From a bacterium (GTDB lineage: Bacteria > Myxococcota > Kuafuiibacteriia > Kuafuiibacteriales > Kuafuiibacteriaceae), in contig JAUHYN010000002.1 in the NCBI GenBank assembly GCA_030426505.1, positions 1 to 38,486 on the forward strand: 38,486 bases of DNA, given 5' to 3'. The translations under genes and the position numbers were made by a program. The notes beneath the pieces are model-generated. The model ran no database searches. It had not been told where the DNA came from and saw nothing but the letters and a program-made list of their open reading frames with translations. Shown here in pieces: positions 5,182 through 38,486 of the stretch (within the stretch, counting starts at the first letter, position 1; every line of letters starts with the position of its first letter).

Positions 5182-6885
5182 ATGATGCGTGGGCGAACGC
5201 ATTGGATCGCACTGGTGTGCGCGGCGTGTACGTCGCCGCCCATCGTCGAGGAGTCTCCCCCACCCTCCGAGGAGGTCCCCATCGCGCGCGTCCACAACGC
5301 GTCGCCGACCGAGGCCATCGCGCTCGATCGCGCGCCGCGCGCGACGTTCCCGCGGATCCCCTCGCAGGGTGAAGCCCCGCCGAATCGCTGCGCGAGCGCG
5401 GCCGCGGATCGCATGTTCGACGACATCACCGCGTGCGCCGGTGTGACCGCGCACCGCGGCTTCATCCACGGCTACCGCACGTCGGGCCAGGCGTTCGCCG
5501 ACGTCGACGGCGACGGCGATCTCGATCTCTACGTCACCGACTCGCTCGGCCCCAACACGCTCTACGCGAACCGCGGCGACGGGACGTACGAGATCTCCGA
5601 GCTCTCGGACCAGGTCGCGCACGCACCCGACCCGAGCGGCGGCGCCGTGTTCGCCGACTACGACAACGACGGCGATCCCGATCTCTACGTCCTCGCGTGG
5701 GGCCGCAACACGCTCTACCGCAACGAGGGCGGCGCGGGGTTCATCGACGTCACGGAGACCGCGAGCGTCGGCACGCTCGGTATGGGGCAGACCGCCGCGT
5801 TCGGCGACTACGACAAGGACGGCTTCCTCGATCTCTACGTGACCAACTGGCTCTGCGACACGTGCGGCGAGGACTGGGTGCAGTCGTTCGGCGATCGCCT
5901 CTACCACAACGAAGGCGACGGCACGTTCACCGACGTCTCGCACTTGATGGGCGTCGCCGAGCGCTCGGGCGCGGGCTACGTCGCGACCTGGTTCGATTAC
6001 GACGACGACCTCGATCTCGATCTGTACGTCGTCAACGACAAGGGCGCCGAGGGCGAGCCCTCCGCGACCCGACCGATCAGCCGCAACGTCCTCTGGGAGA
6101 ACGTCGGCCCGGGCTGCGGCGGGTGGTGCTTCCGCGAACGGGCGGTCGAGGCGGGCGCGGACCAACGCATCGAAGGAATGGGGCTCGCGGTCGGCGACTA
6201 CGACGTCGACGGCGACCTCGATCTGTTCTTCACGAACGCCGGCGACCCCGTGCTCCTCGCCAACGACGGGCGCGGCAACTTCACCGACGTGACGGAGCCC
6301 GCCGGCCTGCGCTTCGACCACACGCACTGGGGCACCGTGTTCTTCGACCACGACAACGACGGCGACCTCGATCTGTTCTTCGCGGTGGGCCGGACGTTCG
6401 GCTACGACAACCCGAACCGCCTCTTCGAGAACCTCGGCGACGGGACGTTCGCGGACGTCTCCGAGGGCAGCGGCGCCGACGGCGCGAGCTACGACATCGG
6501 CGTGGCGAGCGGCGACTACGACGGCGACGGCGCGGTCGACCTCGTCGTGGGCGGCTTCGCGCGCGGCTACCGACTGTTGCGAAACCGCACGAACGATCGC
6601 GAGGGCAACGGCTTCATCACCGTGCGCCTCGCGGGCGGCGGACCGATCAACCGCGACGGCATCGGCGCGCGCGTCTACGTGGAGACCGCGGACGGGCGCC
6701 AGCAGATGCAGGAGCTCGTCTGCGGATCCAGCAACGGCGCGGGGAGCGAGCTCGCGCTGCACTTCGGGATCGGCGCGCAGCGCGTCGGGCAGGTCTTCGT
6801 GCGGTGGCCGGACGGGTTGCTCACCGCGAAGTCGAACGTGCCGGCCGGCAGTCGAATCCTCATGGAATACCCAGTCGATCATTGA
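5182..6885 (+). CDS. CRTAC1-family protein (FG-GAP/VCBS repeats + ASPIC/UnbV C-terminal domain)
   Basis: The ATG at 5182 gives MMRGRTHWIALVCAAC, a signal or lipoprotein-like N-terminus. The ORF-track GTG at 5122 is the alternative start. Repeated F(A/G)DYDxDGDxDLYV motifs are present. The C-terminal NRDGIGARVYVE...CGSSNGAGSELALHFGIG is typical of ASPIC/UnbV. Confidence 0.85.
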   Translation: MMRGRTHWIALVCAACTSPPIVEESPPPSEEVPIARVHNASPTEAIALDRAPRATFPRIPSQGEAPPNRCASAAADRMFDDITACAGVTAHRGFIHGYRTSGQAFADVDGDGDLDLYVTDSLGPNTLYANRGDGTYEISELSDQVAHAPDPSGGAVFADYDNDGDPDLYVLAWGRNTLYRNEGGAGFIDVTETASVGTLGMGQTAAFGDYDKDGFLDLYVTNWLCDTCGEDWVQSFGDRLYHNEGDGTFTDVSHLMGVAERSGAGYVATWFDYDDDLDLDLYVVNDKGAEGEPSATRPISRNVLWENVGPGCGGWCFRERAVEAGADQRIEGMGLAVGDYDVDGDLDLFFTNAGDPVLLANDGRGNFTDVTEPAGLRFDHTHWGTVFFDHDNDGDLDLFFAVGRTFGYDNPNRLFENLGDGTFADVSEGSGADGASYDIGVASGDYDGDGAVDLVVGGFARGYRLLRNRTNDREGNGFITVRLAGGGPINRDGIGARVYVETADGRQQMQELVCGSSNGAGSELALHFGIGAQRVGQVFVRWPDGLLTAKSNVPAGSRILMEYPVDH

Positions 6886-7045
6886 TCTCGTCACGCGAAC
6901 GTTTCTTTGTCGTCACAATCACGTGATCTGAGTTTATCCTCCGGCCATCCGCTGGTTCGCGTCTTCACTCGTCGCCCTCGCGTGGGCGCTCCTCGCGACG
7001 CGCGCCATCGCGACCGAACGAGCCACCGAGACGAGCTCGGCCACC

Positions 7046-19810: not shown

Positions 19811-20725
19811 ATGATGGTCTCCAACCGCGGTTCGATCTGGACCCTGCTCGCGTGGCAGTGGAAGAACACGCTGATCTTCACGTTCGCGTCGACGACCGTC
19901 TTCGTGCTCCACCAGATCCTCGGCTTCGACTGGCTGAGGCTCCCGGCGCTCCCGCTCGGCGTGGTCGGCGGCGCGCTCGGCATCTTCGTGAGCTTCAGGA
20001 CCAACTCGGCGTACGACCGGTGGTGGGAAGGGCGAAAGCTGTGGGGGCGGATGATCAACACGTCGCGGCACCTCGCGCTGCAGGTGCTCGCCTACCTCCC
20101 CGCGAACGGCGGCGCCCCGAGTGAGAAGCAGCAGCGGATCATTCGGCGCCACATCGCGTACGTCCACGCGCTGCGTTGCCTGCTCCGCGGTCAGCGCCCG
20201 TTCGACGACGAAGACTTCAAGCGCACGCTCCCCGACGACCCGGGGCCCCTCGAAGCGGAGAGCAACCTGACCACGGCGCTGCTCGGCAAGCAGCTGCACG
20301 AGGTCACGTCGATGTCGCACGAGAAGGAGTTCGACGAGTTCCGCCTCTCGAACCTCGACCTGTCGATCCGCTCGCTCCTCGACATCCAAGGCGGCTGCGA
20401 GCGCATCAAGAAGACGCCGATGCCGCGCGGCTACGGCTTTATCGCCGAGCGCCTCGTCCACTACTTCTCGTTCCTCTTCCCGATGGCCGTCGTCTCCGAG
20501 CTGCACGCGTGGACGATCCCGGTGAGCCTCCTCGTGTGCATGGCGTTCGCGTTGATCAGCGAAGCCGGGCGCGTGCTCGAGGACCCCTTCACGATGTTCT
20601 GGAACGGCCTCCCGCTCAGCGCGATCAGTCGCATGATCGAGGTGAACCTCGAGGAGCGCATGGGGACGCCGCGGGATCAGTTGCCGCCGATGCTCGAGCC
20701 GAACGAGAAGGGCATCCTCATGTAG
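19811..20725 (+). CDS. Bestrophin-family (YneE/UPF0187) anion channel
   Basis: The ATG at 19811 is the likely start. The motifs FVSFRTNSAYDRWWEGRKLWG and PMPRGYGF are bestrophin hallmarks. Confidence 0.85.
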   Translation: MMVSNRGSIWTLLAWQWKNTLIFTFASTTVFVLHQILGFDWLRLPALPLGVVGGALGIFVSFRTNSAYDRWWEGRKLWGRMINTSRHLALQVLAYLPANGGAPSEKQQRIIRRHIAYVHALRCLLRGQRPFDDEDFKRTLPDDPGPLEAESNLTTALLGKQLHEVTSMSHEKEFDEFRLSNLDLSIRSLLDIQGGCERIKKTPMPRGYGFIAERLVHYFSFLFPMAVVSELHAWTIPVSLLVCMAFALISEAGRVLEDPFTMFWNGLPLSAISRMIEVNLEERMGTPRDQLPPMLEPNEKGILM

Positions 20726-22604
20726 CGTCGCGCCCGCGCGACGTCCCCCAGACGATCGTCTGGATCGCCACCACCGCGACGAGCGTACACGCCACCGCGT
20801 GCGGGACGTAGCGCGGCCACAGCGTCCCGGCCGTCGCCCCGAGCAGCGCCGCGCCCGAAGACCACAGCGTCCGCATGTCCATCGTCACCGCGAGGATCGC
20901 GAGCCCCGCCGACAACAGCAGCATGTCCTGACAGAGGATGAGCTCGATATCGAGGCCCATCCTCAGGCCGAGCGCGAGGTGGATCGGCGCGACCACACCG
21001 AGCGCGAAGATCGCCATCGCGATCTTCTTCGCCGCGCGATTCGCGAGGAGCGTGCGCCGGAAGGCCAGGCCGACGATCACGAGGAACCCGAGGAGCCCGA
21101 GGCGCCCGGTCATCCACGCGCGTGAGCCCCCGAGGTCGAGCAGCTCCAACAGATACAGGCCGCCGATCGCGAGCACGGAGCTGATCCCGAGCGCGGTGTA
21201 CGCGCGCGCGCGCCCACCCTTCGAGACGTCGAGGTCCGCCTCCAGGCTCTCGAGGCGCCGCAAGCGCTCGTCCTGCGCCGTCTCCGCTTCGATGAGCGCG
21301 GTGAGCCGCGCGGCGAGGGCGCGCTTTTCTTCGCCTTCGTCCAGCTCGGCGAGCAGCAGCTCGGCGCCCTCTGGATTCTCGCGATCGATCTCGTAGCCGA
21401 TCATCTCCGCGATCGCGGAAGCGAGCCCGTCGCGCGCCTCCGCGAGATCGGGCGAGCTCCTCAACGCCTCTTCATACGCGAACCGGCACTCCCCGAAGAC
21501 GCGGTGCTGCTCCACGCGGTCGCTCTGTAGCTCCGCGAGGCGTGCCTGCTTGTCTCGCGCTTGCTCGACGAGCCCGACCGAGGAGCGCGTCTGCAAGAAG
21601 TCTTGCAACGCGACGCGGAACGCCTCGGCGTCTTCGAAGCGATCCTCTGGCCTCCCCGCCAACGCGCGCTCACAGATCCGCACGAGCTCGGGCGGCGCGG
21701 TCGATGGATACTCCCGGTCCGGGCGGAATGCGTTGAGGAGCACCGCGATCAGGTTGTGGCCGCGGTGAGGCGTGTCGCCGGAGAGCAGGTGATAGAGGAC
21801 GCCGCCCAACAGGTACACGTCGGTGCGCGGACTCACGGCGCCCGTCCGCCGATCGATCATCTCCGGTGCGAGGTAGGCGGGCGTGCCGACCAACGACATC
21901 GGTCGGTTCGCCTCGCGCGCTGCGCGGAGATCGTCGATGCGCGCCGCGATGCCCCAGTCGAGGAGGTAGACCTCGCCGAAGTCACCGACCATGACGTTCT
22001 CCGGTTTGATGTCGCGGTGGACGTAGCCGTGGCGATGCGCGAAGTGGACGGCGTTCGCGACCTGCATCAACACCTGCAGGCCCCAGTCGAGGCGCGGCCC
22101 GCGCACGGCGGCCCAGCGCGCGTGGTCGGGGTCGCCGAGCATCGAAGACAGCGGCGTCCCGTCGATGCGCTTCATCATGAGGAGCGGCCGCCCCTCGTCG
22201 TCGCGGCCGAGCAGGTGGACCGGCGGGATGTTCGGGTGTTCGAGCGCGCCGATGATGCGCGCTTCGCGGAGGAGGCCGCTGCGCGCGCCGGCGGAGTGTG
22301 TCGTGTGCAGGAGCTTCACCGCGACTTCGCGGCCGAGCGCGACCTGCCACGCGCTGCGCACGACGCCCATTCCGCCGCGCCCGAGCTCGTTACCGAGGAT
22401 GAGTTCGGTGGTGCGCACGTCGGTGTCGCGTTCGGCGACGCGCACCGAGGTCAGCGGCTCCTCCGGGATCTCGACCGGTTCGGTGGGTTCGGCGAAGCGC
22501 GCGTCGAAGGCGTGGCGAATGGAGACGAGGGGGTCGGCGGACTGCTGCGTGTCGAGCAGGCCGATATCGTCGAGCGCCGAGCGGATCGTCTCCTCGAAGG
22601 ACAC
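20718..22604 (-). CDS. Ser/Thr protein kinase with a coiled-coil and a multi-pass membrane C-terminus
   Basis: Kinase motifs are GRGGMGVV, AVK, HRDIKPENVMV, DWGIA and GTPAYLAPE. The C-terminal ~150 aa are hydrophobic. The 3' end overlaps the convergent bestrophin gene by 8 nt. Confidence 0.9.
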   Translation of the reverse strand: MSFEETIRSALDDIGLLDTQQSADPLVSIRHAFDARFAEPTEPVEIPEEPLTSVRVAERDTDVRTTELILGNELGRGGMGVVRSAWQVALGREVAVKLLHTTHSAGARSGLLREARIIGALEHPNIPPVHLLGRDDEGRPLLMMKRIDGTPLSSMLGDPDHARWAAVRGPRLDWGLQVLMQVANAVHFAHRHGYVHRDIKPENVMVGDFGEVYLLDWGIAARIDDLRAAREANRPMSLVGTPAYLAPEMIDRRTGAVSPRTDVYLLGGVLYHLLSGDTPHRGHNLIAVLLNAFRPDREYPSTAPPELVRICERALAGRPEDRFEDAEAFRVALQDFLQTRSSVGLVEQARDKQARLAELQSDRVEQHRVFGECRFAYEEALRSSPDLAEARDGLASAIAEMIGYEIDRENPEGAELLLAELDEGEEKRALAARLTALIEAETAQDERLRRLESLEADLDVSKGGRARAYTALGISSVLAIGGLYLLELLDLGGSRAWMTGRLGLLGFLVIVGLAFRRTLLANRAAKKIAMAIFALGVVAPIHLALGLRMGLDIELILCQDMLLLSAGLAILAVTMDMRTLWSSGAALLGATAGTLWPRYVPHAVACTLVAVVAIQTIVWGTSRGRDAT

Positions 22605-28690: not shown

Positions 28691-29354
28691 AGACGACATC
28701 CATCGCTACTTCGAAGGGCGCCTCACCGCCGTCGCGGAGCGCGACGCGTTGTTCGGTCACCTCGATCGCTGCGACGTGTGCCGCGCGGAGTTCGACGCGA
28801 TCGCGGAGGCGGATCGTCTGCTCGCGGATCTGCCCGCGGACGCGGTGTCGCCCGTGCAGCTCGACGCGATCCGCGCGTCGGTGTTGGACGTCGCCGAGCC
28901 CGAGGCGCCGTCGCGCGCGAAGTGGTGGCTGACGTGGCTCGTGCCAGCGGCGGTCGCCGGAGTCGCGCTGTTCGCGGCCATGCCGAAGGAGACGTTCACC
29001 TCGAAGGGCGGCGGCGCGCCGACCACGCCGACGGTCGAGGTGCTGTGCTTCGACGACGCCGCGAACATCGTCGCGCACCTCGCGGCGAGCGGGACGTGTC
29101 CGGCGCCCGGGTTCGCGAAGATGATCTACGCGTCGCCCGAGCAGACGCCGCACCTGACCGTGGTGGCGCGGCAGGGGGATCGGATCGTCGCGCGCGCTTC
29201 CGTCGAGGACGTGAAGCCGCGGAGCGTGTTGCCGGAGCACGTGGCGTTGGAGCCCGGGGTGTCGACCGCGTTCGTGGTGTTCACGGAGCCGCCGGATGAC
29301 GAGGCGTTGAAGACGGCGCCGGCCACGCTGGTCGTCACGGGGGTGGCGAAGTGA
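28674..29354 (+). CDS. Anti-sigma factor (zf-HC2 type) with a single TM helix
   Basis: GAGGAGG lies 6 nt upstream of the ATG, and the gene overlaps the sigma gene by 17 nt. The motif HLDRCDVCRAEF fits Hx3Cx2C. The TM helix is WWLTWLVPAAVAGVALFAAM. Confidence 0.75.
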   Translation: MKAHVEDDIHRYFEGRLTAVAERDALFGHLDRCDVCRAEFDAIAEADRLLADLPADAVSPVQLDAIRASVLDVAEPEAPSRAKWWLTWLVPAAVAGVALFAAMPKETFTSKGGGAPTTPTVEVLCFDDAANIVAHLAASGTCPAPGFAKMIYASPEQTPHLTVVARQGDRIVARASVEDVKPRSVLPEHVALEPGVSTAFVVFTEPPDDEALKTAPATLVVTGVAK

Positions 29355-30826
29355 TCGCGGTGTTGTTGGCCGCGCTCGCGGTGGCGCCGACCGAATCCGT
29401 GCCGCGCCGCTACGCGGTGGTGATCGGCGTGAACGAGCCGGGCCGCCCGGGGCAGTCGCCGCTGTCGTACGCCGACGACGACGCGGCGCGCTTCTTCGCG
29501 TTCTTCTCGGTGGTGAGTCGCGACGCTGCGTTGTTGTCGCTGCTCGACGACGAGACCCAGAAGCTCTACCCGGAGGCGGTCGCGGTCGCGGAGCTGCCGG
29601 AGGAGGAGCGCGTGTTGGCGCGGGTGGACGCGCTGTTCGAGCGCATCCGCGCGGACAACCGCGACGGGCACGAGACCGAGTTCTACTTCGTGTACAGCGG
29701 GCACGGCTTCGTGGACGACCACGGCGAAGGCCACCTCGCGATGCGCGGCGGGACGCTGTCGCGCACTGAGTTGTACGAACGAATCATCCAGCGATCACCC
29801 GCGAAGGTGAACCACCTGATCATCGACGCGTGCGACGCGTACTTCGTCGTCAACTCACGCGGCGACGAGGACATCGAAGCGCTCCTCGAGAAGCGCGCTC
29901 TAGAGTTCCTCGCGCGGCAGACCCTCGAGAACTTCCCGAACACCGGGGCGGTGCTGTCCACGGCGTCGAAGGCGGAGTCGCACGAGTGGTCGGAGATTCG
30001 CGCGGGCGTGTTCTCACACGGCGTGCGCTCGGCGCTGGTCGGCGCGGCGGACGCGGACCAGGACGGGCGCGTCTCGTACACGGAGCTGGAGGCATTCGTG
30101 CTCGCCGCGATCTCGGGCGTGCAGCACGCCGACGCGAACCGCGCGGTGTACGTGCGCGCGCCGAAGATCGATCGCCTGCGCCCGGTCATCGACCTGCGCG
30201 GCGCGGATCGCATGGCGCGCCTGCACCTCGCCGCGCCGGTCGCGGGGCGCGTGGCGTTGGCGGACGAGCAGGGGCGTCGCTACGCGGACCTGCACAAGGC
30301 CTCCGGCTACCCGTTGGCGCTCGCGTTGTTGCCGGGGCGCCGCTACTTCGTGCGGCTCGACGATCTCGAGTACGCGGTGCCGAGTGACCTGCGCGACGTG
30401 CAGCTCGCGCAGCTCAAAGGCGGCCCACCCCGCATGGCGGCGCGCGGCGCGATCGAGGACGCCTTCGCGCGCGGGCTCTTCAAGGTGCCGTACGGGCCGG
30501 CGTTGGTGGATGGGTTCAGGCTCGGTCAGGACCAGCGCACCGACCTGGTGGTCGCGCCTCCGCGCGCGGGCTCTTCGGCGCTCACGATCGCGAAGTGGGG
30601 CACGGCGGGGGCTGCGGTGGTGGCGGGCGGCGTGGCCGTCGGGACGTTCCTCGCGGCGGACTCCGCGCACGAGCGGTTCCGTTCTGCTTCGTCGTTCGAC
30701 GAGGAGACCCGCGCGGACGCCGACGTGCGCCGCTGGGACTCCGCGACCAACGTCGCGCTCGGCGCGGCGATCTCGTTCGGCGTGACGGCGGGCATCCTGT
30801 TCGTGGTCGACGCGGTGACCGAGTGA
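29351..30826 (+). CDS. Caspase-family (peptidase C14) protein with a signal peptide and C-terminal TM anchors
   Basis: The GTG start overlaps the anti-sigma stop. The His/Cys dyad context is FYFVYSGHGF and NHLIIDACDAYF. The start RYAVVIGVNE is typical of the caspase fold. Confidence 0.75.
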   Translation: MIAVLLAALAVAPTESVPRRYAVVIGVNEPGRPGQSPLSYADDDAARFFAFFSVVSRDAALLSLLDDETQKLYPEAVAVAELPEEERVLARVDALFERIRADNRDGHETEFYFVYSGHGFVDDHGEGHLAMRGGTLSRTELYERIIQRSPAKVNHLIIDACDAYFVVNSRGDEDIEALLEKRALEFLARQTLENFPNTGAVLSTASKAESHEWSEIRAGVFSHGVRSALVGAADADQDGRVSYTELEAFVLAAISGVQHADANRAVYVRAPKIDRLRPVIDLRGADRMARLHLAAPVAGRVALADEQGRRYADLHKASGYPLALALLPGRRYFVRLDDLEYAVPSDLRDVQLAQLKGGPPRMAARGAIEDAFARGLFKVPYGPALVDGFRLGQDQRTDLVVAPPRAGSSALTIAKWGTAGAAVVAGGVAVGTFLAADSAHERFRSASSFDEETRADADVRRWDSATNVALGAAISFGVTAGILFVVDAVTE

Positions 30827-32811: not shown

Positions 32812-33198
32812 TTAGTGGGCGGCGTCGAACCGCCAGAACCGCGCGGAGTGGGCGAGGGCGCCGGCTCGGTGGGTTCGGGTTGGGCGTTGAATCCCGCTGG
32901 CGGTGAGTGACGCCGACTGCTCGACGCAGTCGGCGTAGTCGCATCCCGTCCGGCTCTTGCAGAGCGCGTAGAGCTCCTCGAGTTTCTTCCCTTGCGCGTC
33001 CGACAAATTGTCGACGAGCGCCTCCGTGACATCGACGCAGACCTTCAGCGTCGGCGCTTCCTGACCGCGCGAGCGCGCGCAGCTGATGGTCTGGGCGCAG
33101 TCGTACTCGGCGTCGTAGTCGAGCCCGCCGCAGGCGGTGAGGAGGAGGAGGGCGGTGGTGATGGGGAGGAGGGAGTGGTGGCGGGGGAGGGCGTGCAT
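32812..33198 (-). CDS. Small Cys-containing lipoprotein
   Basis: The ATG at 33198 gives MHALPRHHSLLPITTALLLLTACGG (lipobox LLTAC). The longer ORF-track start at 33234 runs into the C-rich complement of the G-tract. Confidence 0.6.
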   Translation of the reverse strand: MHALPRHHSLLPITTALLLLTACGGLDYDAEYDCAQTISCARSRGQEAPTLKVCVDVTEALVDNLSDAQGKKLEELYALCKSRTGCDYADCVEQSASLTASGIQRPTRTHRAGALAHSARFWRFDAAH

Positions 33199-33214
33199 TT
33201 GGCGGATTGTTGGT

Positions 33215-33248
33215 GGGTTGGGTGTGGGGGGCAAGGGTGGGTGTGGGG
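33215..33248 (+). repeat. G-tract cluster with a canonical G-quadruplex motif
   Basis: GGGttGGGtgtGGGGGGcaaGGGtGGGtgtGGGG contains six runs of 3 or more G, with loops of 1-3 nt. It lies directly upstream of the minus-strand lipoprotein start, at the point where composition changes. Confidence 0.5.
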
Positions 33249-33471
33249 CTGATCTCGAGGACAGGTGGTGAGTTATGGGCGGCCGACGCCGTGCTGTGGT
33301 CCGGTAGTATTCTGCCTGATATCGACGAGGTGCGGCGACGTGCTCATGGGAGTGCGGCTTCGCACGTTGGTGACGAACGAGAAGGCGAAGCGAGAATGCG
33401 TTTGCCGGGCGTTGTAGGACTTGACCAGCGAGCGCGTTGAGCCCGAGCCGATTCCGTGCTCAAGTCTGCCG

Positions 33472-34392
33472 ATGGCCCGCCCAAGAAGCGTCGTCGATCC
33501 CCAGGACTGGGCTACTGCGATAGCTCTCCTTGAGGCGGCGCTATCGGATGGAGATGAGGTGTTCAGCACGACGGCCTTCCGCAAGGAACTAGAGCGCAAA
33601 GGCATCGAGGACCCGAAGCTAGTTATTCGGCGGCTTCGGTTCTATGACGACGATACTGAGATGGACCCAGGATGCAAGCGCCCGAAGTTCGATTTCTATC
33701 ACCACGGCCGTAGCTTCTACTCCGAGCAAGCGTACAACGAACTTGAGGACGAGACCGATGAAGAGGCAAAGACAGCCTACGACGCAGAGGCCGGAGGTGC
33801 TCCCGAGGAGGGCGTCGAGGAGGTCGCTGCGAGGCGCTCATACCGGCAAGAGGAGGCGCGGCTCGTCCCCTATGTGCGGACGGCTTTGGACGAGATGTAT
33901 GCTTCGGACTTCGCCCCGGAAGACGTCGCGTCGGTCGCATTCGATGTACATAGTCGTCGTGCCGGGAGCGAGTACGAGAATGTCGATGTTCTTGCCGTTC
34001 ATTGGCGGTCCGAGAAGCGGGTTGACATAGTTACCGTTGAGATCAAACTGCACTTCGGGCCGCAGGTGGTTCACCAGGCACACAACTATACGCGCTTCTC
34101 CAACCGTGTTTGGATCGCCGTGCCGGTTGCGGTGAGGTCCGACGAGGCGGCCGTGCAGCTCCGTGAGGAGAACCCGACGCTCTTCGATTACGTCACGGAG
34201 ATCGGTCTGGGGATACTCGGATGCCACCGTCGACAGGGTGGGAAGTACGACGTCTTTCCATTGCAGTGGCCGAGGAGGTTCGAGCCCGACCCTGTAGAGT
34301 TCGATGGATTTGTTGAGCGGTATCGTCCCGAGTTTGAGGACACGCGCGTCGTCGAGCCTGAACGCCGCCGCAACTACGCTAAAATTCGTTAG
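33472..34392 (+). CDS. PD-(D/E)xK (restriction-endonuclease-fold) nuclease-like protein with an uncharacterised N-terminal domain and an acidic linker
   Basis: The C-terminal core EARLVPYVRTAL ... ENVDVLAVHWRSEKRVDIVTVEIKLHF ... QAHNYTRF ... VWIAVP gives an E ... D ... ExK ... Q arrangement. The start is either the ATG at 33472 or the TTG at 33421. This is the first gene of the lower-GC region. Confidence 0.6.
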   Translation: MARPRSVVDPQDWATAIALLEAALSDGDEVFSTTAFRKELERKGIEDPKLVIRRLRFYDDDTEMDPGCKRPKFDFYHHGRSFYSEQAYNELEDETDEEAKTAYDAEAGGAPEEGVEEVAARRSYRQEEARLVPYVRTALDEMYASDFAPEDVASVAFDVHSRRAGSEYENVDVLAVHWRSEKRVDIVTVEIKLHFGPQVVHQAHNYTRFSNRVWIAVPVAVRSDEAAVQLREENPTLFDYVTEIGLGILGCHRRQGGKYDVFPLQWPRRFEPDPVEFDGFVERYRPEFEDTRVVEPERRRNYAKIR

Positions 34393-34429
34393 GAACGCCC
34401 GAAAGGCAACAGTGTGAGCGTTGGTCGTA

Positions 34430-34459
34430 TTGAAATGTCGCGCCGCTGCGCTTTAGAAT
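34430..34459 (+). promoter_or_regulatory. Sigma-70-like promoter (TTGAAA-N18-TAGAAT)
   Basis: The -35 is at 34430-34435 and the -10 at 34454-34459. The GTG start at 34470 would then have a very short or absent leader. Identified by eye only. Confidence 0.3.
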
Positions 34460-34469
34460 AGCACCGACT

Positions 34470-35681
34470 GTGATAATAAAGCCCCCCGGGACCCTTACGA
34501 AGGAAGATGTCGCTAGGTTGATTGATGCACGCGTGCCTGAGGGGCGACGGCTCGACTACAAGCAGGAACTCCCTAGCTTGGACACGCCTCGCAGCGTTAC
34601 CGAGCTACTGCGTGACGTGACAGCGTTCGCCAACGCCAGCGGCGGGCAACTGATCTTTGGTGTTTCAGAAGTTCGAGATGACAACAACCATACAACGGGT
34701 GTTCCCTCGTCTCTCGTTCCCTTCCCTGTCGAGAACGTCGATAGATTAAGGATCAGGCTCCTTGACAAGATTCGGGGCAGCGTGGATCCGCCCATCGTTG
34801 GACTCGCGATGGATTTCATCGAGTGCAGCGAGGGTGAGTATGTCGCAATTCTACGCGTCCCGCCAAGTCTCTCGGCTCCTCACATGATCACGGAAGGGGC
34901 CGGTGCGCAGAGAGGCAATTCTAGATTCTATTACAGGCACGGGTCCAACAAGCAGCCTATGGATGTATCGGAAATCCGCGCAGCGTTTGTGCGCTCGCAG
35001 TCTCAGCAGGCCCTGGTGCGTACTCGGCTGAAGTTGGCGGCGGACGCCATCCTCGCCGGCGAAACCCCTCTTGACCTTGGGGTGGCTTCGAAGTTGTGCC
35101 TACTCCTTCTGCCCATTGATGCCGTCTCGGCGGAGCCGCCAACAGTAGACTTCGATCATGCCTCGGTAAGGAGCCTACTTCAACCGATTCGAGGCTTCGC
35201 GCCAGGCGCCCGCTTCAACTTCGATGGCTACCTAACCTACGCAGTTGGGCAAAGCGGAGAAAATCTTTCTTCGTACACGCAGTTGTATCACGACGGTTCA
35301 ATCGAGGCGGTCTCGACCGACGTACTCCGCATAGCCCGAGGGACCGGAGCGGCGTATCTTGAGATGGATGTGATCGCGGGCGAGATCGTTAAGGCGTGCC
35401 AACGGTACCTGAAAGCACAGCAACTAATCGGTCTCTCGATACCAGTGTATGTCGCGATGGCCTTCCTTGAGTTTCGTGGGGTCCAATTGCGGTCCAGACC
35501 TGGCGACATTGTTCATGAGTTAGATCGAGACAACATGTTGCTTCCACCGATGGTTCTAGACAGCTTTGAGCCAGACGTCCCCGCTGTCTTTCGCCCGGCA
35601 TTCGACCGAATCTGGCAAGCTTTTGGCTTCGAAAGCTCCTCGCTCTATGAAAGGGGCGCTGTCTTCGGAGAATCTCTGTGA
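34470..35681 (+). CDS. Schlafen-like AlbA_2 (PF04326-type) domain protein with an uncharacterised ~250-aa C-terminal region
   Basis: The N-terminal LIDARVPEGRRLDYKQELP ... LLRDVTAFANASGGQLIFGV ... YVAILRVPPS matches the AlbA_2/divergent-AAA_4 pattern (ExxxL(E/D)(F/Y)K ... AFAN(T/A)xGG). Confidence 0.7.
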   Translation: MIIKPPGTLTKEDVARLIDARVPEGRRLDYKQELPSLDTPRSVTELLRDVTAFANASGGQLIFGVSEVRDDNNHTTGVPSSLVPFPVENVDRLRIRLLDKIRGSVDPPIVGLAMDFIECSEGEYVAILRVPPSLSAPHMITEGAGAQRGNSRFYYRHGSNKQPMDVSEIRAAFVRSQSQQALVRTRLKLAADAILAGETPLDLGVASKLCLLLLPIDAVSAEPPTVDFDHASVRSLLQPIRGFAPGARFNFDGYLTYAVGQSGENLSSYTQLYHDGSIEAVSTDVLRIARGTGAAYLEMDVIAGEIVKACQRYLKAQQLIGLSIPVYVAMAFLEFRGVQLRSRPGDIVHELDRDNMLLPPMVLDSFEPDVPAVFRPAFDRIWQAFGFESSSLYERGAVFGESL

Positions 35682-35781
35682 TACAGAGTGCGTCTCCAAG
35701 CGATATCCCGCAATCGATTGAGTCTCGAACAGCTGAATCCGAGCATCTGGCGGACGGCTTCCGCGCAATTGGAGGGACGCG

Positions 35782-36294
35782 TTGAGCAGAATCTTCATCT
35801 CATATTCACATGTCGACTCGGCATATGCGGAGGTTGTCGCAAGGTCGATGACTCGCGCGGGGATTCCGTATGCAATCGACAAAATAGAGCTGCGTCCGGG
35901 GGACTCGCTTAGGAGAAGGATCGGCGCGGCTCTGGATTCTGCTACTGCTCTCGTTGCGCTTCTTACGGAGGCTTCGTCAAAGTCGAGGTGGGTCGAGGAC
36001 GAGTTGATACTGATCCGTGACCTCGGGAAGCGCATCGTCCCTGTTCGCTGCGATGCGGCGGAGTGGCCGCCGAGCATCCGGCTTGTTCTGAGCGACTCCT
36101 TGTGGGTGAACGGAGTCACCCCAGATGCCCTCGCTGCGGCCGTTCCAAGGGCATTCTTCGACCTACTCGCCGCGTCACCGTCAGCTGGGATGGGAAGGTT
36201 CTCAAGATTCGTAACGAGACCACGCTCGCCTTCGGTACGGTTGTTTCAGGGGACGCTGCAGACGGCCGTTCGGGAGCTCGGTTTTGGGCGATGA
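35782..36294 (+). CDS. TIR domain protein
   Basis: The TTG start has GGAGGG 5 nt upstream. The motifs are IFISYSHVDSAYAEVV ... IELRPGDSL ... ALVALLTEASSKSRWVEDEL, i.e. betaA FISYS and the WxxxE glutamate context of NAD-cleaving TIRs. Confidence 0.8.
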   Translation: MSRIFISYSHVDSAYAEVVARSMTRAGIPYAIDKIELRPGDSLRRRIGAALDSATALVALLTEASSKSRWVEDELILIRDLGKRIVPVRCDAAEWPPSIRLVLSDSLWVNGVTPDALAAAVPRAFFDLLAASPSAGMGRFSRFVTRPRSPSVRLFQGTLQTAVRELGFGR

Positions 36295-37084
36295 CACTGT
36301 CGTGGTTCCCACGGACCAAAGGGCAGATCCGCGTGGCATCGTAACGCGCAGCGTTCTCGATTTCTTTCGAGTCGAACCTGAGAGCGTCAGAGGTCGAAGT
36401 CGTGCGTTCTCGAGTAGAGAAGTTGTGGAACTCTGGTCTGGTCAGTACGACGGGGTCACCGTACAAGTCGTCGCCTCCACGGTCTTCAACGACGCTGGTG
36501 CATACCGAGCCGAAGATCAGTGGAGAGCCGCCCACGCCGCCTTGAATGCAGCTCGGGCGGCAGGCGCTTCAGTTCTGTTTGTGCCGTCGCTCGGCACTGG
36601 CGCGTATGGATGGCCTCGTGATACTGCCCCCATTAACTGGCTCTATGGAGCGCTCGATTGGACAAAGCAGAACGAACTCGCCACGGAGGAGGCACCCTGG
36701 ATCGTTATTTGCCAACCTGGAGGGGTTGGATTTCGGACTGCAGAGAGTTGGCTAGATGCGCTTACCGGGGAAAGGATAGGTCTCCTCGAACAACGGCGGT
36801 GGCAACTAGAGATTGAGCGACCGGGACTGGCTCCGCAGACTGTTCAAGCGCAATGTGACGCTCCACTTGGAGTAGCGGTCAATCCTCTCGTTCGCGATGT
36901 CCCGGCGCACTCAGTTCCGGTTGCGGTACATCCATCGATTCGGTTCGTGAGAAGGAAGTCGGATCTCATCTACAACCTTGGAACCCCACTGAATCGGACG
37001 GCGTTCGCCGACGGATCTCGGGTTCTTCTCTTTCGCGATGCGACTCAGGCGATGGGGTGGGTCGAGTCGGCGAGCACCCGATGA
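36284..37084 (+). CDS. Macro-like (ADP-ribose-binding fold) protein with an unknown ~115-aa C-terminal domain
   Basis: The TTG at 36284 overlaps the TIR 3' end by 11 nt (the GTG at 36302 is the alternative start). SVLFVPSLGTGAYGWP aligns almost residue for residue with the macro-domain loop-2 consensus (S)IAFPaIsTGiyGfP. The upstream (I/V)VNAAN...GGGV part is poorly preserved (VQVVASTVFNDAG), so the domain may be divergent or minimal. Confidence 0.5.
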   Translation: MGDDTVVVPTDQRADPRGIVTRSVLDFFRVEPESVRGRSRAFSSREVVELWSGQYDGVTVQVVASTVFNDAGAYRAEDQWRAAHAALNAARAAGASVLFVPSLGTGAYGWPRDTAPINWLYGALDWTKQNELATEEAPWIVICQPGGVGFRTAESWLDALTGERIGLLEQRRWQLEIERPGLAPQTVQAQCDAPLGVAVNPLVRDVPAHSVPVAVHPSIRFVRRKSDLIYNLGTPLNRTAFADGSRVLLFRDATQAMGWVESASTR

Positions 37085-37407
37085 ATGCTGACGAGGCGCA
37101 GTCCGCAGCGAGATGAGCCCGGCGGAAATTTCGATATGCCCATTGTGTTCCCCTCGAGTCCGTCGAACCTGAGGCCGTCGCGCGTCGTCATGCTGATCGA
37201 TCCATCGGCCTCGCGGATCTGCGGCACCAGCGGCACCTTGCGAATCTCCGGGTCGGGGTACTGCTCCATCCACAGCCGCAGCGAGCCTTCGAGGACATCG
37301 AGCTCCTCGCAGATCGCCGCGAACGTCGCGCCGTCGGAACGGAGCCTTCGTGCTTGGCTCGCGAGTCGTCTCTTCTCGGATGTGGCCCAATGCCGTCGCT
37401 TCTTCAT
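37045..37407 (-). mobile_element. Remnant of an IS element: transposase HTH_Tnp_1 (IS66 TnpA / IS3 OrfA-like) ORF without a catalytic partner
   Basis: KRRHWATSEKRRLASQARRLRSDGATFAAICEELDVLEGSLRLWMEQ is the helix-turn-helix transposase pattern. PLVPQIREADGSISMTTRDGLRFDG resembles the IS66 TnpA C-terminus. No tnpB/tnpC or DDE ORF follows. The ORF tail overlaps the macro-like gene end by 40 nt. The segment is GC-rich, unlike its neighbours. Confidence 0.5.
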
Positions 37408-37532
37408 CGCGCAGGCGCTACCCGTGGGCGATCAGCCTGTCATGGGGGCTCGGCGAGCACGTACCTTGATCCGCCTGCGAGTATGACCGCGGGTTGACTA
37501 AGGTGAGGGACGGGCGGACTCTCCGTTAGGTA

Positions 37533-38024
37533 ATGGCACGCCGGGTCTTCTCTAGTTTTCACTATCGACCGGATAACTGGCGTGCGGCGCAGGTCCGCAA
37601 TATCGGCGCGATAGAGGGCAATCAACTCGCAACCGACAATGATTGGGAAAGCGTAACGTCGGCAGGCGATGGTGCCATAGAGCGATGGATTCAGCGCCAG
37701 ATGCATGGCCGATCCTGCGTCATTGTCCTCGCGGGCTCCCAGACAGCTAAGCGCAAGTGGATTGACTACGAGATCAAATATGGATGGCAGCAGGGAAAAG
37801 GTGTTTTTGCGATCCATATTCACAGGCTGAAGAATCGACTAGGTCTCCAGTCCCCGAAGGGGTGGAATCCTTTCTCACACCTCAACCTAGGCGGGGTCTC
37901 CTTCGAGACGATCGCTCCTTGTTACAGCCCGCCATTCGTAGACAGTAGGCTGGTCTACCAGTACATTGCCACCAATATTGAACGTTGGATTGAGAACGCA
38001 ATTGCGATTAGGGGACGATTCTGA
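37533..38024 (+). CDS. TIR-like DUF1863 (ThsB-like) domain protein
   Basis: RRVFSSFHYRPDNW ... SCVIVLAGSQTAKRKWIDYEIKYG ... GVFAIHIH matches the DUF1863/MTH538 TIR-like pattern (F(I/S)S(F/Y)HY, T..S.W(V/I).(W/Y)EI). Confidence 0.8.
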   Translation: MARRVFSSFHYRPDNWRAAQVRNIGAIEGNQLATDNDWESVTSAGDGAIERWIQRQMHGRSCVIVLAGSQTAKRKWIDYEIKYGWQQGKGVFAIHIHRLKNRLGLQSPKGWNPFSHLNLGGVSFETIAPCYSPPFVDSRLVYQYIATNIERWIENAIAIRGRF

Positions 38025-38486
38025 TAAGCGGTGTCCGGCGCTATAGGTTGTGGCGATCCTCCTTCCATTGGACAGAATGTTGTTGTCGAATACGTTAGAG
38101 GCGTATGGGTTCGGCGACCTCACCACCGGAAGACTGAAGTGGGCACGCGCCGCCAAGGTGGTTCGCCCCCTTACGAAGAACCGCTTGGCCTTCGCCGGAC
38201 CGGAGGCGCTGTCGATTGTTGCCGTCGCGACCGGAACAACGACGAGCTCATTCAGCTTTCCTGCCGGGCATCGCAGCAGCTATTTGCGCTCGTCACCTGA
38301 CGGGCTACGCTGGTACTTCGCGCCGACATCCGGGGCGGCGGACCAGCGGGGAAGTGTTGATGCGTTCAAGCTAGAGATGGGCGGCCCAGTTCCGATGTGG
38401 AGTGCAAGTGAGCGACGAGCAGAATCGGGTGGCCCTGCATTCCTGGGGGGTCGTCGCCGTCAGCCCCACGATCGTCGTAGGAACCT

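Follow-up and report, generated by a model that had tools for sequence, protein, structure and literature searches.

A TIR–macro gene with a predicted ubiquitin-like tail, probably inactivated by one extra nucleotide, in a bacterium of the family Kuafuiibacteriaceae

In the NAD+/ADP-ribose-based immunity of bacteria, plants, and animals, TIR NADases and macro domains both hold a central place, and the locus described here raises the question of whether the two are encoded by a pair of cooperating genes or by a single one. The locus lies near the end of a 38,486-nt stretch of DNA (hereafter, the window), which represents positions 1 to 38,486 of the contig JAUHYN010000002.1 (assembly GCA_030426505.1) from a bacterium of the family Kuafuiibacteriaceae (Myxococcota). 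Two open reading frames (ORFs) of the forward strand overlap there by 11 nt: ORF1 (35782–36294, TTG start, 170 amino acid residues (aa), MSRIFISYSH...SRWVEDEL...GFGR and a stop) and, in the frame offset by +1, ORF2 (36284–37084, TTG start with an in-frame GTG at 36302, 266 aa). In the initial annotation, they were taken for two translationally coupled genes, coding for a TIR protein and a soluble macro-like partner and operating in a Thoeris-like signalling or a DarTG-like toxin–antidote manner. The ORF positions, the overlap, and the motifs quoted in that annotation were confirmed; its two-gene interpretation gave way to another one. ORF1 and ORF2 are the parts of one gene coding for a single-chain protein of ~433 aa with a TIR domain, a linker, a divergent macro domain, and a predicted ubiquitin-like domain at the C-terminus; in this contig the gene is split by one extra nucleotide and, most probably, was recently inactivated.

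One gene split by one extra nucleotide

The elements of the gene are listed below; the residue numbers refer to the reconstructed protein.

35771–35776, forward strand: Shine–Dalgarno-like GGAGGG, 6 nt 5' of the TTG start of the gene (direct sequence reading)
35782–36156, forward strand: TIR domain, residues 1–125 (Pfam TIR_2, structural model, family profile)
36157–36222, forward strand: flexible linker leading from the TIR to the macro domain, residues 126–147 (the one part of the full-length model with low confidence)
36223–36291, forward strand: first macro strand SVRLF (36232–36246) and helix LQTAVREL (36256–36279) (DSSP on the full-length model)
36292–36295, forward strand: frameshift site, made up of the ORF1 stop TGA and a C (codon comparison with the homologous loci L001, L002, L003, L005, and L007)
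36293–36796, forward strand, +1 frame: rest of the macro domain, residues 171–338 (AlphaFold, Foldseek)
36797–37042, forward strand: C-terminal domain of ~80 aa, ubiquitin-like (beta-grasp) by fold search (models, BFVD Foldseek)
37043–37084, forward strand: window-specific C-terminal tail (…ATQAMGWVESASTR) and stop codon (the homologues end earlier in the family alignment)

At the junction, 7 nt (TGACACT, 36292–36298) lie between the Arg codon and that of the first Val in the window, versus 6 nt, making up two codons, in the five homologues; the first three of the window bases form the stop of ORF1. When one base is dropped, a 433-aa protein is obtained, which aligns without gaps across the junction with its relatives P0002 and P0003 (GFGR-DT-VVVPTD versus AFGR-AC-VVVPTD and AFGR-VA-VVVPTD).

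These two proteins (420 and 432 aa, respectively) were the only relatives recovered by a single-sequence, word-indexed search with ORF2 in 5.8e9 proteins, and both carry a TIR domain before the ORF2-like part. A profile built of the three sequences yielded 18 matches in the same set, the window's own protein included, and the N-terminally complete ones all displayed the TIR, macro, and tail parts in one chain of 419–432 aa. The same architecture was found in the 29 matches (E <= 1e-3) of an exhaustive HMMER search over 1.84e9 cluster representatives. Overall, the N-terminally complete TIR-headed relatives examined are all single chains of roughly 420–550 aa, so the TIR and macro parts are indeed conserved together, namely within the same polypeptide.

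Certain entries deviating from this length have simple explanations. Some short ones are cut by contig ends, and P0005 was mis-called from an internal Met: its true ORF in L005 encodes 458 aa, or 425 aa when counted from the Met matching the homologues. Another relative, P0017, is split in L006 (9298–10627), a 260-kb contig with several local frame errors, whereas a JGI contig (L012, 3244–4605) carries what is essentially this protein in an uninterrupted ORF. Hence, an apparent split in this family can result from faulty assembly.

The structural models lend further support to a single gene. They were built with AlphaFold2 from a 15-sequence family alignment (pLDDT 89.9 and pTM 0.88 for ORF2; pLDDT 86.8 and pTM 0.87 for the reconstructed full-length protein). 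In the full-length model, DSSP assigned a strand to residues 151–155 and a helix to residues 159–166, directly before the junction; both lie in the frame of ORF1, ending at Arg170, in a segment with the conserved family pattern F-x-G-T-[LIV]-Q-x-A...F-G-R. Adding this strand and helix to the part encoded by ORF2 raised the TM(target) to viral macro domains from ~0.63 to ~0.76 and the number of aligned columns from ~161 to ~185 (7h6j_A, 9yhj_A, 3gqe_B, 6r0r). As judged from the models, the macro fold starts at approximately residue 148, inside ORF1, and only its first strand and helix precede the frameshift.

Several features of the junction weigh against the loss of the gene by a frameshift and have been considered with a genuine two-gene operon in mind. 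ORF2 is open for 266 codons, and direct reading of the sequence reveals a Shine–Dalgarno-like GGGAG (36272–36276) 7 nt 5' of its TTG start, so that its separate expression is conceivable. With the 11-nt overlap, ORF2 could be translated by termination–reinitiation at TTG 36284 or GTG 36302 to give a non-covalent split protein or a signal producer accompanied by a receptor or an antidote; since the split falls in a loop between a helix and the next strand, fragment complementation is conceivable as well. However, GGGAG represents the Arg-Glu codons of the conserved helix, the macro sheet loses one of its integral strands through the break, the window departs from the homologues by exactly one nucleotide, and a split at this position occurs in no other family member, the complete ones examined being single chains. 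An operon is improbable on these grounds, and a functional split protein, though possible, finds no support.

The ORF1 stop might also be bypassed by programmed +1 ribosomal frameshifting of the prfB type at CGA-UGA-C, giving the full-length protein: a sense codon is followed there by UGA-C, the weak-stop context of prfB, and the shift needed is indeed +1. This candidate was rejected as very improbable for three reasons: the P-site tRNA-Arg is unable to move from CGA to pairing with GAU (in prfB, the slip is from CUU to UUU), GGGAG is situated 12 nt upstream of CGA and not at the ~3 nt that stimulates the +1 shift, and the shift site is not conserved, the five homologues examined all being in frame. 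As a side observation, an 18-codon frame (36291–36344, forward strand, MTLSWFPRTKGQIRVAS and a stop) starts from an ATG that overlaps the stop of ORF1 in the sequence ATGA; it belongs to the third frame, distinct from that of ORF2, and probably has no significance.

A more serious alternative to the inactivation of the gene is that it is intact in the organism and encodes a functional single-chain TIR–macro–ubiquitin-like protein, the extra base being an assembly or sequencing error. The window sequence alone does not separate a mutation from such an error. Both halves are full length without further stops, and the broken L006 copy with its intact L012 counterpart provides a precedent. On the other side, the site GGGCGATGACACT is not homopolymeric, there is a single frame error as opposed to several in L006, and the gene lies beside a remnant of an insertion sequence (IS) in an eroded-looking island (see below). 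Its 3' end is atypical: the C-terminus of ORF2 extends ~11 aa beyond the point where the homologues end, in overlap with the minus-strand ORF of the IS remnant, and the 3' end of the gene may be clipped.

The window protein is also the strongest deviant of the family at invariant positions, 13/60 of which are changed downstream of the shift and 7/43 upstream, versus at most 8/60 and 7/44, respectively, in other members. These counts point to pseudogene decay, but weakly: the excess of substitutions downstream is small and not significant, which favours the error, and the greater divergence of the C-terminal domain relative to the TIR domain in the window copy is likewise a weak signal. An unbroken allele of the window junction, searched for with 2–5 variable bases, was not found in the JGI metagenome contigs. 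Taken together, these points make a recent inactivation of the window copy most probable and an assembly error in an intact gene less likely.

The TIR, macro, and C-terminal domains

The TIR assignment of ORF1 is robust. ORF1 matched Pfam TIR_2 over residues 4–110 with E 3.3e-20 (73.2 bits versus a cut-off of 28) and, closer to the threshold, ThsB_TIR (24.5 bits versus 21.2, E 3.6e-5); its best PADLOC match was the SAVED-TIR effector (2.9e-14). The catalytic Glu74 is encoded by GAG at 36001–36003, inside SRWVEDEL (35983–36006), and the Glu in the W-V-x-x-E-[LI] motif is invariant in 13/13 sequences of the family alignment covering this region, the window included. The TIR part of the full-length model was matched to AbTir (7uxu_A, TM(target) 0.73) as well as to the SPARTA TIR and RPP1, and the best match of the family profile in the PDB was Cat1 (E 1.2e-7), followed by PdTIR and AbTir, with TcpB also recovered. 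By structure and profile comparison, the fold resembles that of the NADases AbTir, SARM1, and RPP1. The linker behind it is predicted to be flexible, with pLDDT <50 at residues 132–137.

These findings bear on the DarTG-like logic of the initial annotation, according to which the macro protein would be an antidote reversing TIR-dependent ADP-ribosylation. An antitoxin role of macro domains is established for DarTG and for SIR2–macro pairs (the latter mentioned in PMC9503650). On the other hand, no DarT/ART domain was found by Pfam or PADLOC in ORF1, ORF2, or the flanking ORFs, no PADLOC defence model matched ORF2, and the domains are covalently fused in cis in the complete relatives. TIR domains are known to operate as NAD+ glycohydrolases or cyclases and are not known to be ADP-ribosyltransferases acting on protein or DNA. 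A toxin–antidote pair is therefore highly unlikely.

The suggestion that ORF2 encodes a soluble macro-like protein with an additional C-terminal domain fared better. Transmembrane segments are absent from both ORF1 and ORF2 (maximum Kyte–Doolittle 19-residue means of 1.28 and 1.24, respectively), and the structure prediction proposed in the initial annotation returned a macro fold: ~165/264 residues of the ORF2 model were aligned by Foldseek to macro domains from the PDB with a probability of 1.00. The matches included macroH2A1.1 (1yd9, E 1.1e-5), YmdB (5cb5), MacroD2 (6y73), PARP14 macro 2, and CHIKV nsP3, with E values of ~1e-5 to 1e-6 and a TM(target) of up to 0.78 when the full-length model was used. 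At the sequence level, the similarity is fainter. ORF2 matched Pfam Macro (PF01661) over residues 72–115 with E 0.019 and 15.4 bits, under the gathering cut-off of 22, which is exceeded in the relatives P0019 (26.3 bits) and P0028 (25.5 bits).

The macro motifs in the window comprise VVVPTD (36299–36316), ASTVFN (36473–36490), AEDQWRAA (36509–36532), and loop 2, LGTGAYGWP, inside the stretch SVLFVPSLGTGAYGWP (36569–36616) that had been quoted as a near-consensus macro loop. The initial annotation also stated that a clear NAAN/GGG first loop is lacking; this is true of GGG, while the loop itself is degenerate rather than absent, as VVVPTD...G aligns with the family motif VVPT[DN]xxVxLxGK. In the family, loop 2 (G-T-G-x-[YF]-x-W-P) and the N/D at the NAAN-equivalent position (PT[DN]) are conserved. 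Compared with the canonical macro domains of the MacroD/macroH2A type, the fold is the same (TM(target) 0.6–0.78), and loop 2 (G-x-G-x-[YF]-G-x-P) and the NAAN-position N/D are kept, whereas the window ORF2 falls under the Pfam threshold and, in a by-eye comparison with motifs from the literature, has a single Gly in place of GGG and Thr in place of Asp. We take the conserved segment before the junction to be the macro G-D-I-T strand, with Thr replacing the adenine-contacting Asp; likewise, the Asp/His catalytic pair of MacroD is not recognisable by eye in the family.

The remaining, C-terminal part of the protein is found in all full-length relatives and looks like a beta-grasp, or ubiquitin-like, domain as far as the models can tell. 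Its predicted elements follow in the order beta-beta-alpha-beta-beta-beta, and it bears the conserved motif Y-x-L-x-T-P-L-x-x-T-x-F-A-D-G-D, represented in the window by YNLGTPLNRTAFADGS (36971–37018). The BFVD search with Foldseek, in which the query was the whole model and not the isolated domain, retrieved a ubiquitin-like protein of Terrestrivirus (82 columns, rmsd 2.8, probability 1.00, E 1.3e-2). Marseillevirus ubiquitin and a Clandestinovirus ubiquitin-like protein were matched as well, together with macro domains and, in long alignments, fragments of coronavirus pp1a, which contain a ubiquitin-like plus a macro domain. For this domain, the profile search against PDB sequences gave only noise (Rifin, uL3), and the Pfam scan of all family members produced no match. 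The C-termini of the family do not end in Gly-Gly.

A rare family and its possible function

The family to which the reconstructed protein belongs is one of rare, uncharacterised single-chain TIR–macro–ubiquitin-like proteins. No relative was found in 185,579 GTDB species genomes with two peptide patterns, a screen which is not exhaustive, since P0019 (GCA_016850145.1) matches neither of them. In the literature searched, which covered the field incompletely, no TIR–macro(–beta-grasp) fusion was described. No neighbour gene is conserved across the ~10 loci compared, so the unit of the family is a single gene. E.g., the 347-aa gene upstream of the L001 homologue shows no similarity to the two genes upstream in the window, and the small TIR gene downstream of the homologue in L005 bears no meaningful similarity to the ThsB-type gene of the window (see below).

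A few members differ in what precedes the macro domain. P0019 possesses an N-terminal EAD1 adaptor ahead of the TIR–macro–tail chain, with a second EAD1 protein encoded 3 kb upstream (6006–6923 and 10001–11659 in L008/L009); no STAND NTPase was seen within its 10-kb flanks. The genes around it are of the PSCyt/PSD1/DUF1501 kind, Planctomycete-like by their look. In P0020, the TIR domain is replaced by a calcineurin-like metallophosphoesterase. In P0022, the N-terminus is tentatively a nucleosidase: 10/13 of its phmmer matches in the PDB were MTA/SAH nucleosidases, aligned in their C-terminal half with E 0.02–0.9, and it had no PNP_UDP match in Pfam.

This arrangement, with a constant macro domain and tail and interchangeable heads, suggests, by analogy with sensor–effector fusions such as SAVED-, STING-, and CARF-TIR and with Thoeris effectors, a ligand-sensing or regulatory module: because the constant part stands behind variable enzymatic heads, the former may be regulatory and the latter the effectors. 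In the intact members, the macro domain and the beta-grasp tail would bind a ligand, most plausibly ADP-ribose (ADPR) or an ADPR-derived molecule, and would control an interchangeable N-terminal effector degrading nucleotides. In the branch represented by the window, the activated TIR NADase would deplete NAD+ or make ADPR products, following the one-protein sensor–effector logic of SAVED-TIR, STING-TIR, CARF-TIR (Cat1), and SARM1. One of the options in the initial annotation, a receptor for an ADPR-type messenger with a new output domain, would survive in a modified form, with the macro and beta-grasp domains as the sensor and TIR as the output.

Among the closest functional analogues are the systems of type II Thoeris, in which a TIR protein, ThsB, produces the signal, His-ADPR or IAD/ADPR, for a receptor–effector combining a transmembrane and a macro part (ThsA/ThsC) (PMC11204291; bioRxiv 10.1101/2024.01.03.573942; bioRxiv 10.64898/2025.12.03.692087). 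The macro domain is a ligand receptor there and not a hydrolase (PMC11204291; bioRxiv 10.1101/2024.01.03.573942). The combination of TIR and macro domains, in Thoeris serving NAD+/ADPR-based immunity, is common to both, but type II Thoeris, the known bacterial case, relies on separate genes and a transmembrane effector, whereas the family described here has one chain with no transmembrane segment, a beta-grasp-like tail, and no separate TIR partner conserved across loci. No macro structure of Thoeris ThsA occurred among the 50 best Foldseek PDB matches of either model, and the macro and tail part had no match in PADLOC/NCBIfam, ThsA included, when ORF2 and the reconstructed fusion were scanned. 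With no transmembrane effector, no conserved separate ThsB, and no match to a ThsA model, the Thoeris II-like two-gene interpretation of the locus is not upheld. A recent systematic survey of Thoeris explicitly discarded standalone TIR proteins.

Single-chain sensor–TIR effectors and SARM1 are close functional analogues as well. In TIR-SAVED of CBASS, TIR-STING, CARF-TIR Cat1, Pycsar TIR, and SARM1, a nucleotide-binding regulator is fused to the TIR NADase, and the ligand controls TIR assembly and activity. The putative sensor of the window family differs in being a macro plus beta-grasp module located C-terminally to TIR, with no cyclase or other signal generator associated. TIR and Macro are both listed among the effector domains acting on NAD+/ADPR (Kaur, Burroughs, Iyer, Aravind 2020, PMC7159879). 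Through the EAD1 of P0019, the family also resembles the EAD-tagged effectors of the NTP-dependent (STAND/NLR-like) conflict systems of multicellular bacteria (PMC7159879); unlike those, the window protein and most of its relatives have neither EAD1 nor an adjacent STAND NTPase.

Several observations speak against this regulatory interpretation. Swapped heads are documented by very few sequences, and the assignment of one of them as a nucleosidase is weak. The Asp of GDIT is absent from the macro domain, G-T-L-Q being found instead, and a single invariant Gly stands for the GGG loop, so that the ligand may be other than ADP-ribose, judging from the sequence. No conserved signal-producing partner which could feed a receptor was found in the ~10 loci. 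Furthermore, a hydrolase and a binder cannot be told apart from the sequence and fold of this macro domain.

Accordingly, a catalytic role of the intact macro domain has to be weighed, in which it would either reset the signal by hydrolysing or editing an ADPR derivative or complete a two-step messenger synthesis. Its structural neighbours do include the hydrolases YmdB, MacroD2, and alphavirus nsP3, the NAAN-position N/D and loop 2 are conserved, and the variant headed by a metallophosphoesterase could also act on ADPR-type substrates. However, L-x-G-K-V-T-T-S replaces the GGG-V-D-x-x-x-H of MacroD (as read off the family alignment), the top structural match, macroH2A1.1, is a non-catalytic binder, and a signal-resetting enzyme fused 1:1 to the producer would be self-defeating unless regulated. 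A catalytic macro domain appears rather unlikely on this balance.

Returning to a sensory module, a more specific proposal can be put forward tentatively. The macro and beta-grasp domains might constitute an undescribed receptor module for an ADP-ribose-derived ligand, which switches on the TIR NADase, metallophosphoesterase, or nucleosidase heads; the ligand could be made in trans (e.g., by the ThsB-type TIR protein encoded 450 nt downstream in the window) or be a phage-made ADP-ribosylation product. If true, this would define a new class of Thoeris-like effectors whose output is itself TIR. A fused TIR–macro protein with a ubiquitin-like tail and swappable heads would add a new sensor–effector architecture and provide a compact model for the gating of a TIR by ligand binding to a macro domain. 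The proteins to study are the intact relatives P0004, P0013, and P0019 and not the window copy: the apparent operon of the window is most probably a broken gene in an eroding defence island, unfit for annotation or study as a two-component system.

Genomic surroundings

The features neighbouring the gene in the window are as follows.

33421–34392, forward strand: 323-aa ORF preceding the Schlafen/AlbA_2 gene (no Pfam, PADLOC, or NCBIfam match)
34470–35681, forward strand: Schlafen/AlbA_2 protein, 403 aa (N-terminal Pfam match, 2.6e-15; C-terminal half uncharacterised)
37045–37407, reverse strand: IS66-like remnant, a tnpA-type helix-turn-helix ORF only (Pfam HTH_Tnp_1, E 2.3e-5)
37533–38024, forward strand: ThsB-type TIR gene, 163 aa (PADLOC ThsB1 6e-65 and PDC-M50B 3e-56; Pfam ThsB_TIR 1.6e-26)

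The last 5.5 kb of the window (33000–38486) are distinguished by a GC content of 57–62% and a GC content at third codon positions (GC3) of ~0.55–0.69, versus 68–74% (~70%) and 0.8–0.96, respectively, elsewhere in the contig. Such a contrast is suggestive of an island acquired by horizontal transfer and holding several defence-type genes, of which the Schlafen/AlbA_2 gene and the 323-aa ORF may be further examples. The IS66-like remnant, also matched by NCBIfam IS66_ISRel24_TnpA with E 4e-4, below the cut-off, lacks tnpB and tnpC; it bounds the 3' side of the TIR–macro gene and overlaps the last 40 nt of ORF2. It is all that is situated in the ~450 nt between the TIR–macro gene and the ThsB-type gene. 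No ThsA-type effector was encountered 3' of the latter in the remaining 460 nt of the contig, and the ThsB-type gene could be an orphan or have its partner beyond the contig end.

The surroundings of the family genes are often rich in conflict systems. In L005 (1247–21104), P0005 belongs to a cluster of at least seven TIR-domain genes with an integrase, among them TIR-CHAT-NB-ARC-TPR, TIR-VWA, TIR-DNA methylase, and small TIR genes. In L007, a CHAT protease is encoded near the homologue, P0020 is surrounded by an island with a methyltransferase and an SMC-like ATPase, and CHAT, NB-ARC/TIR, and caspase-like genes occur nearby at other loci.

Elsewhere in the window, a weak EACC1-associated caspase-type match (29351–30826, forward strand; NCBIfam E 4.7e-7, far below the cut-off) and a Ser/Thr kinase gene (20718–22604, reverse strand) were noted. 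Caspase-type and Ser/Thr kinase genes are typical of the conflict systems in bacteria with complex lifestyles.

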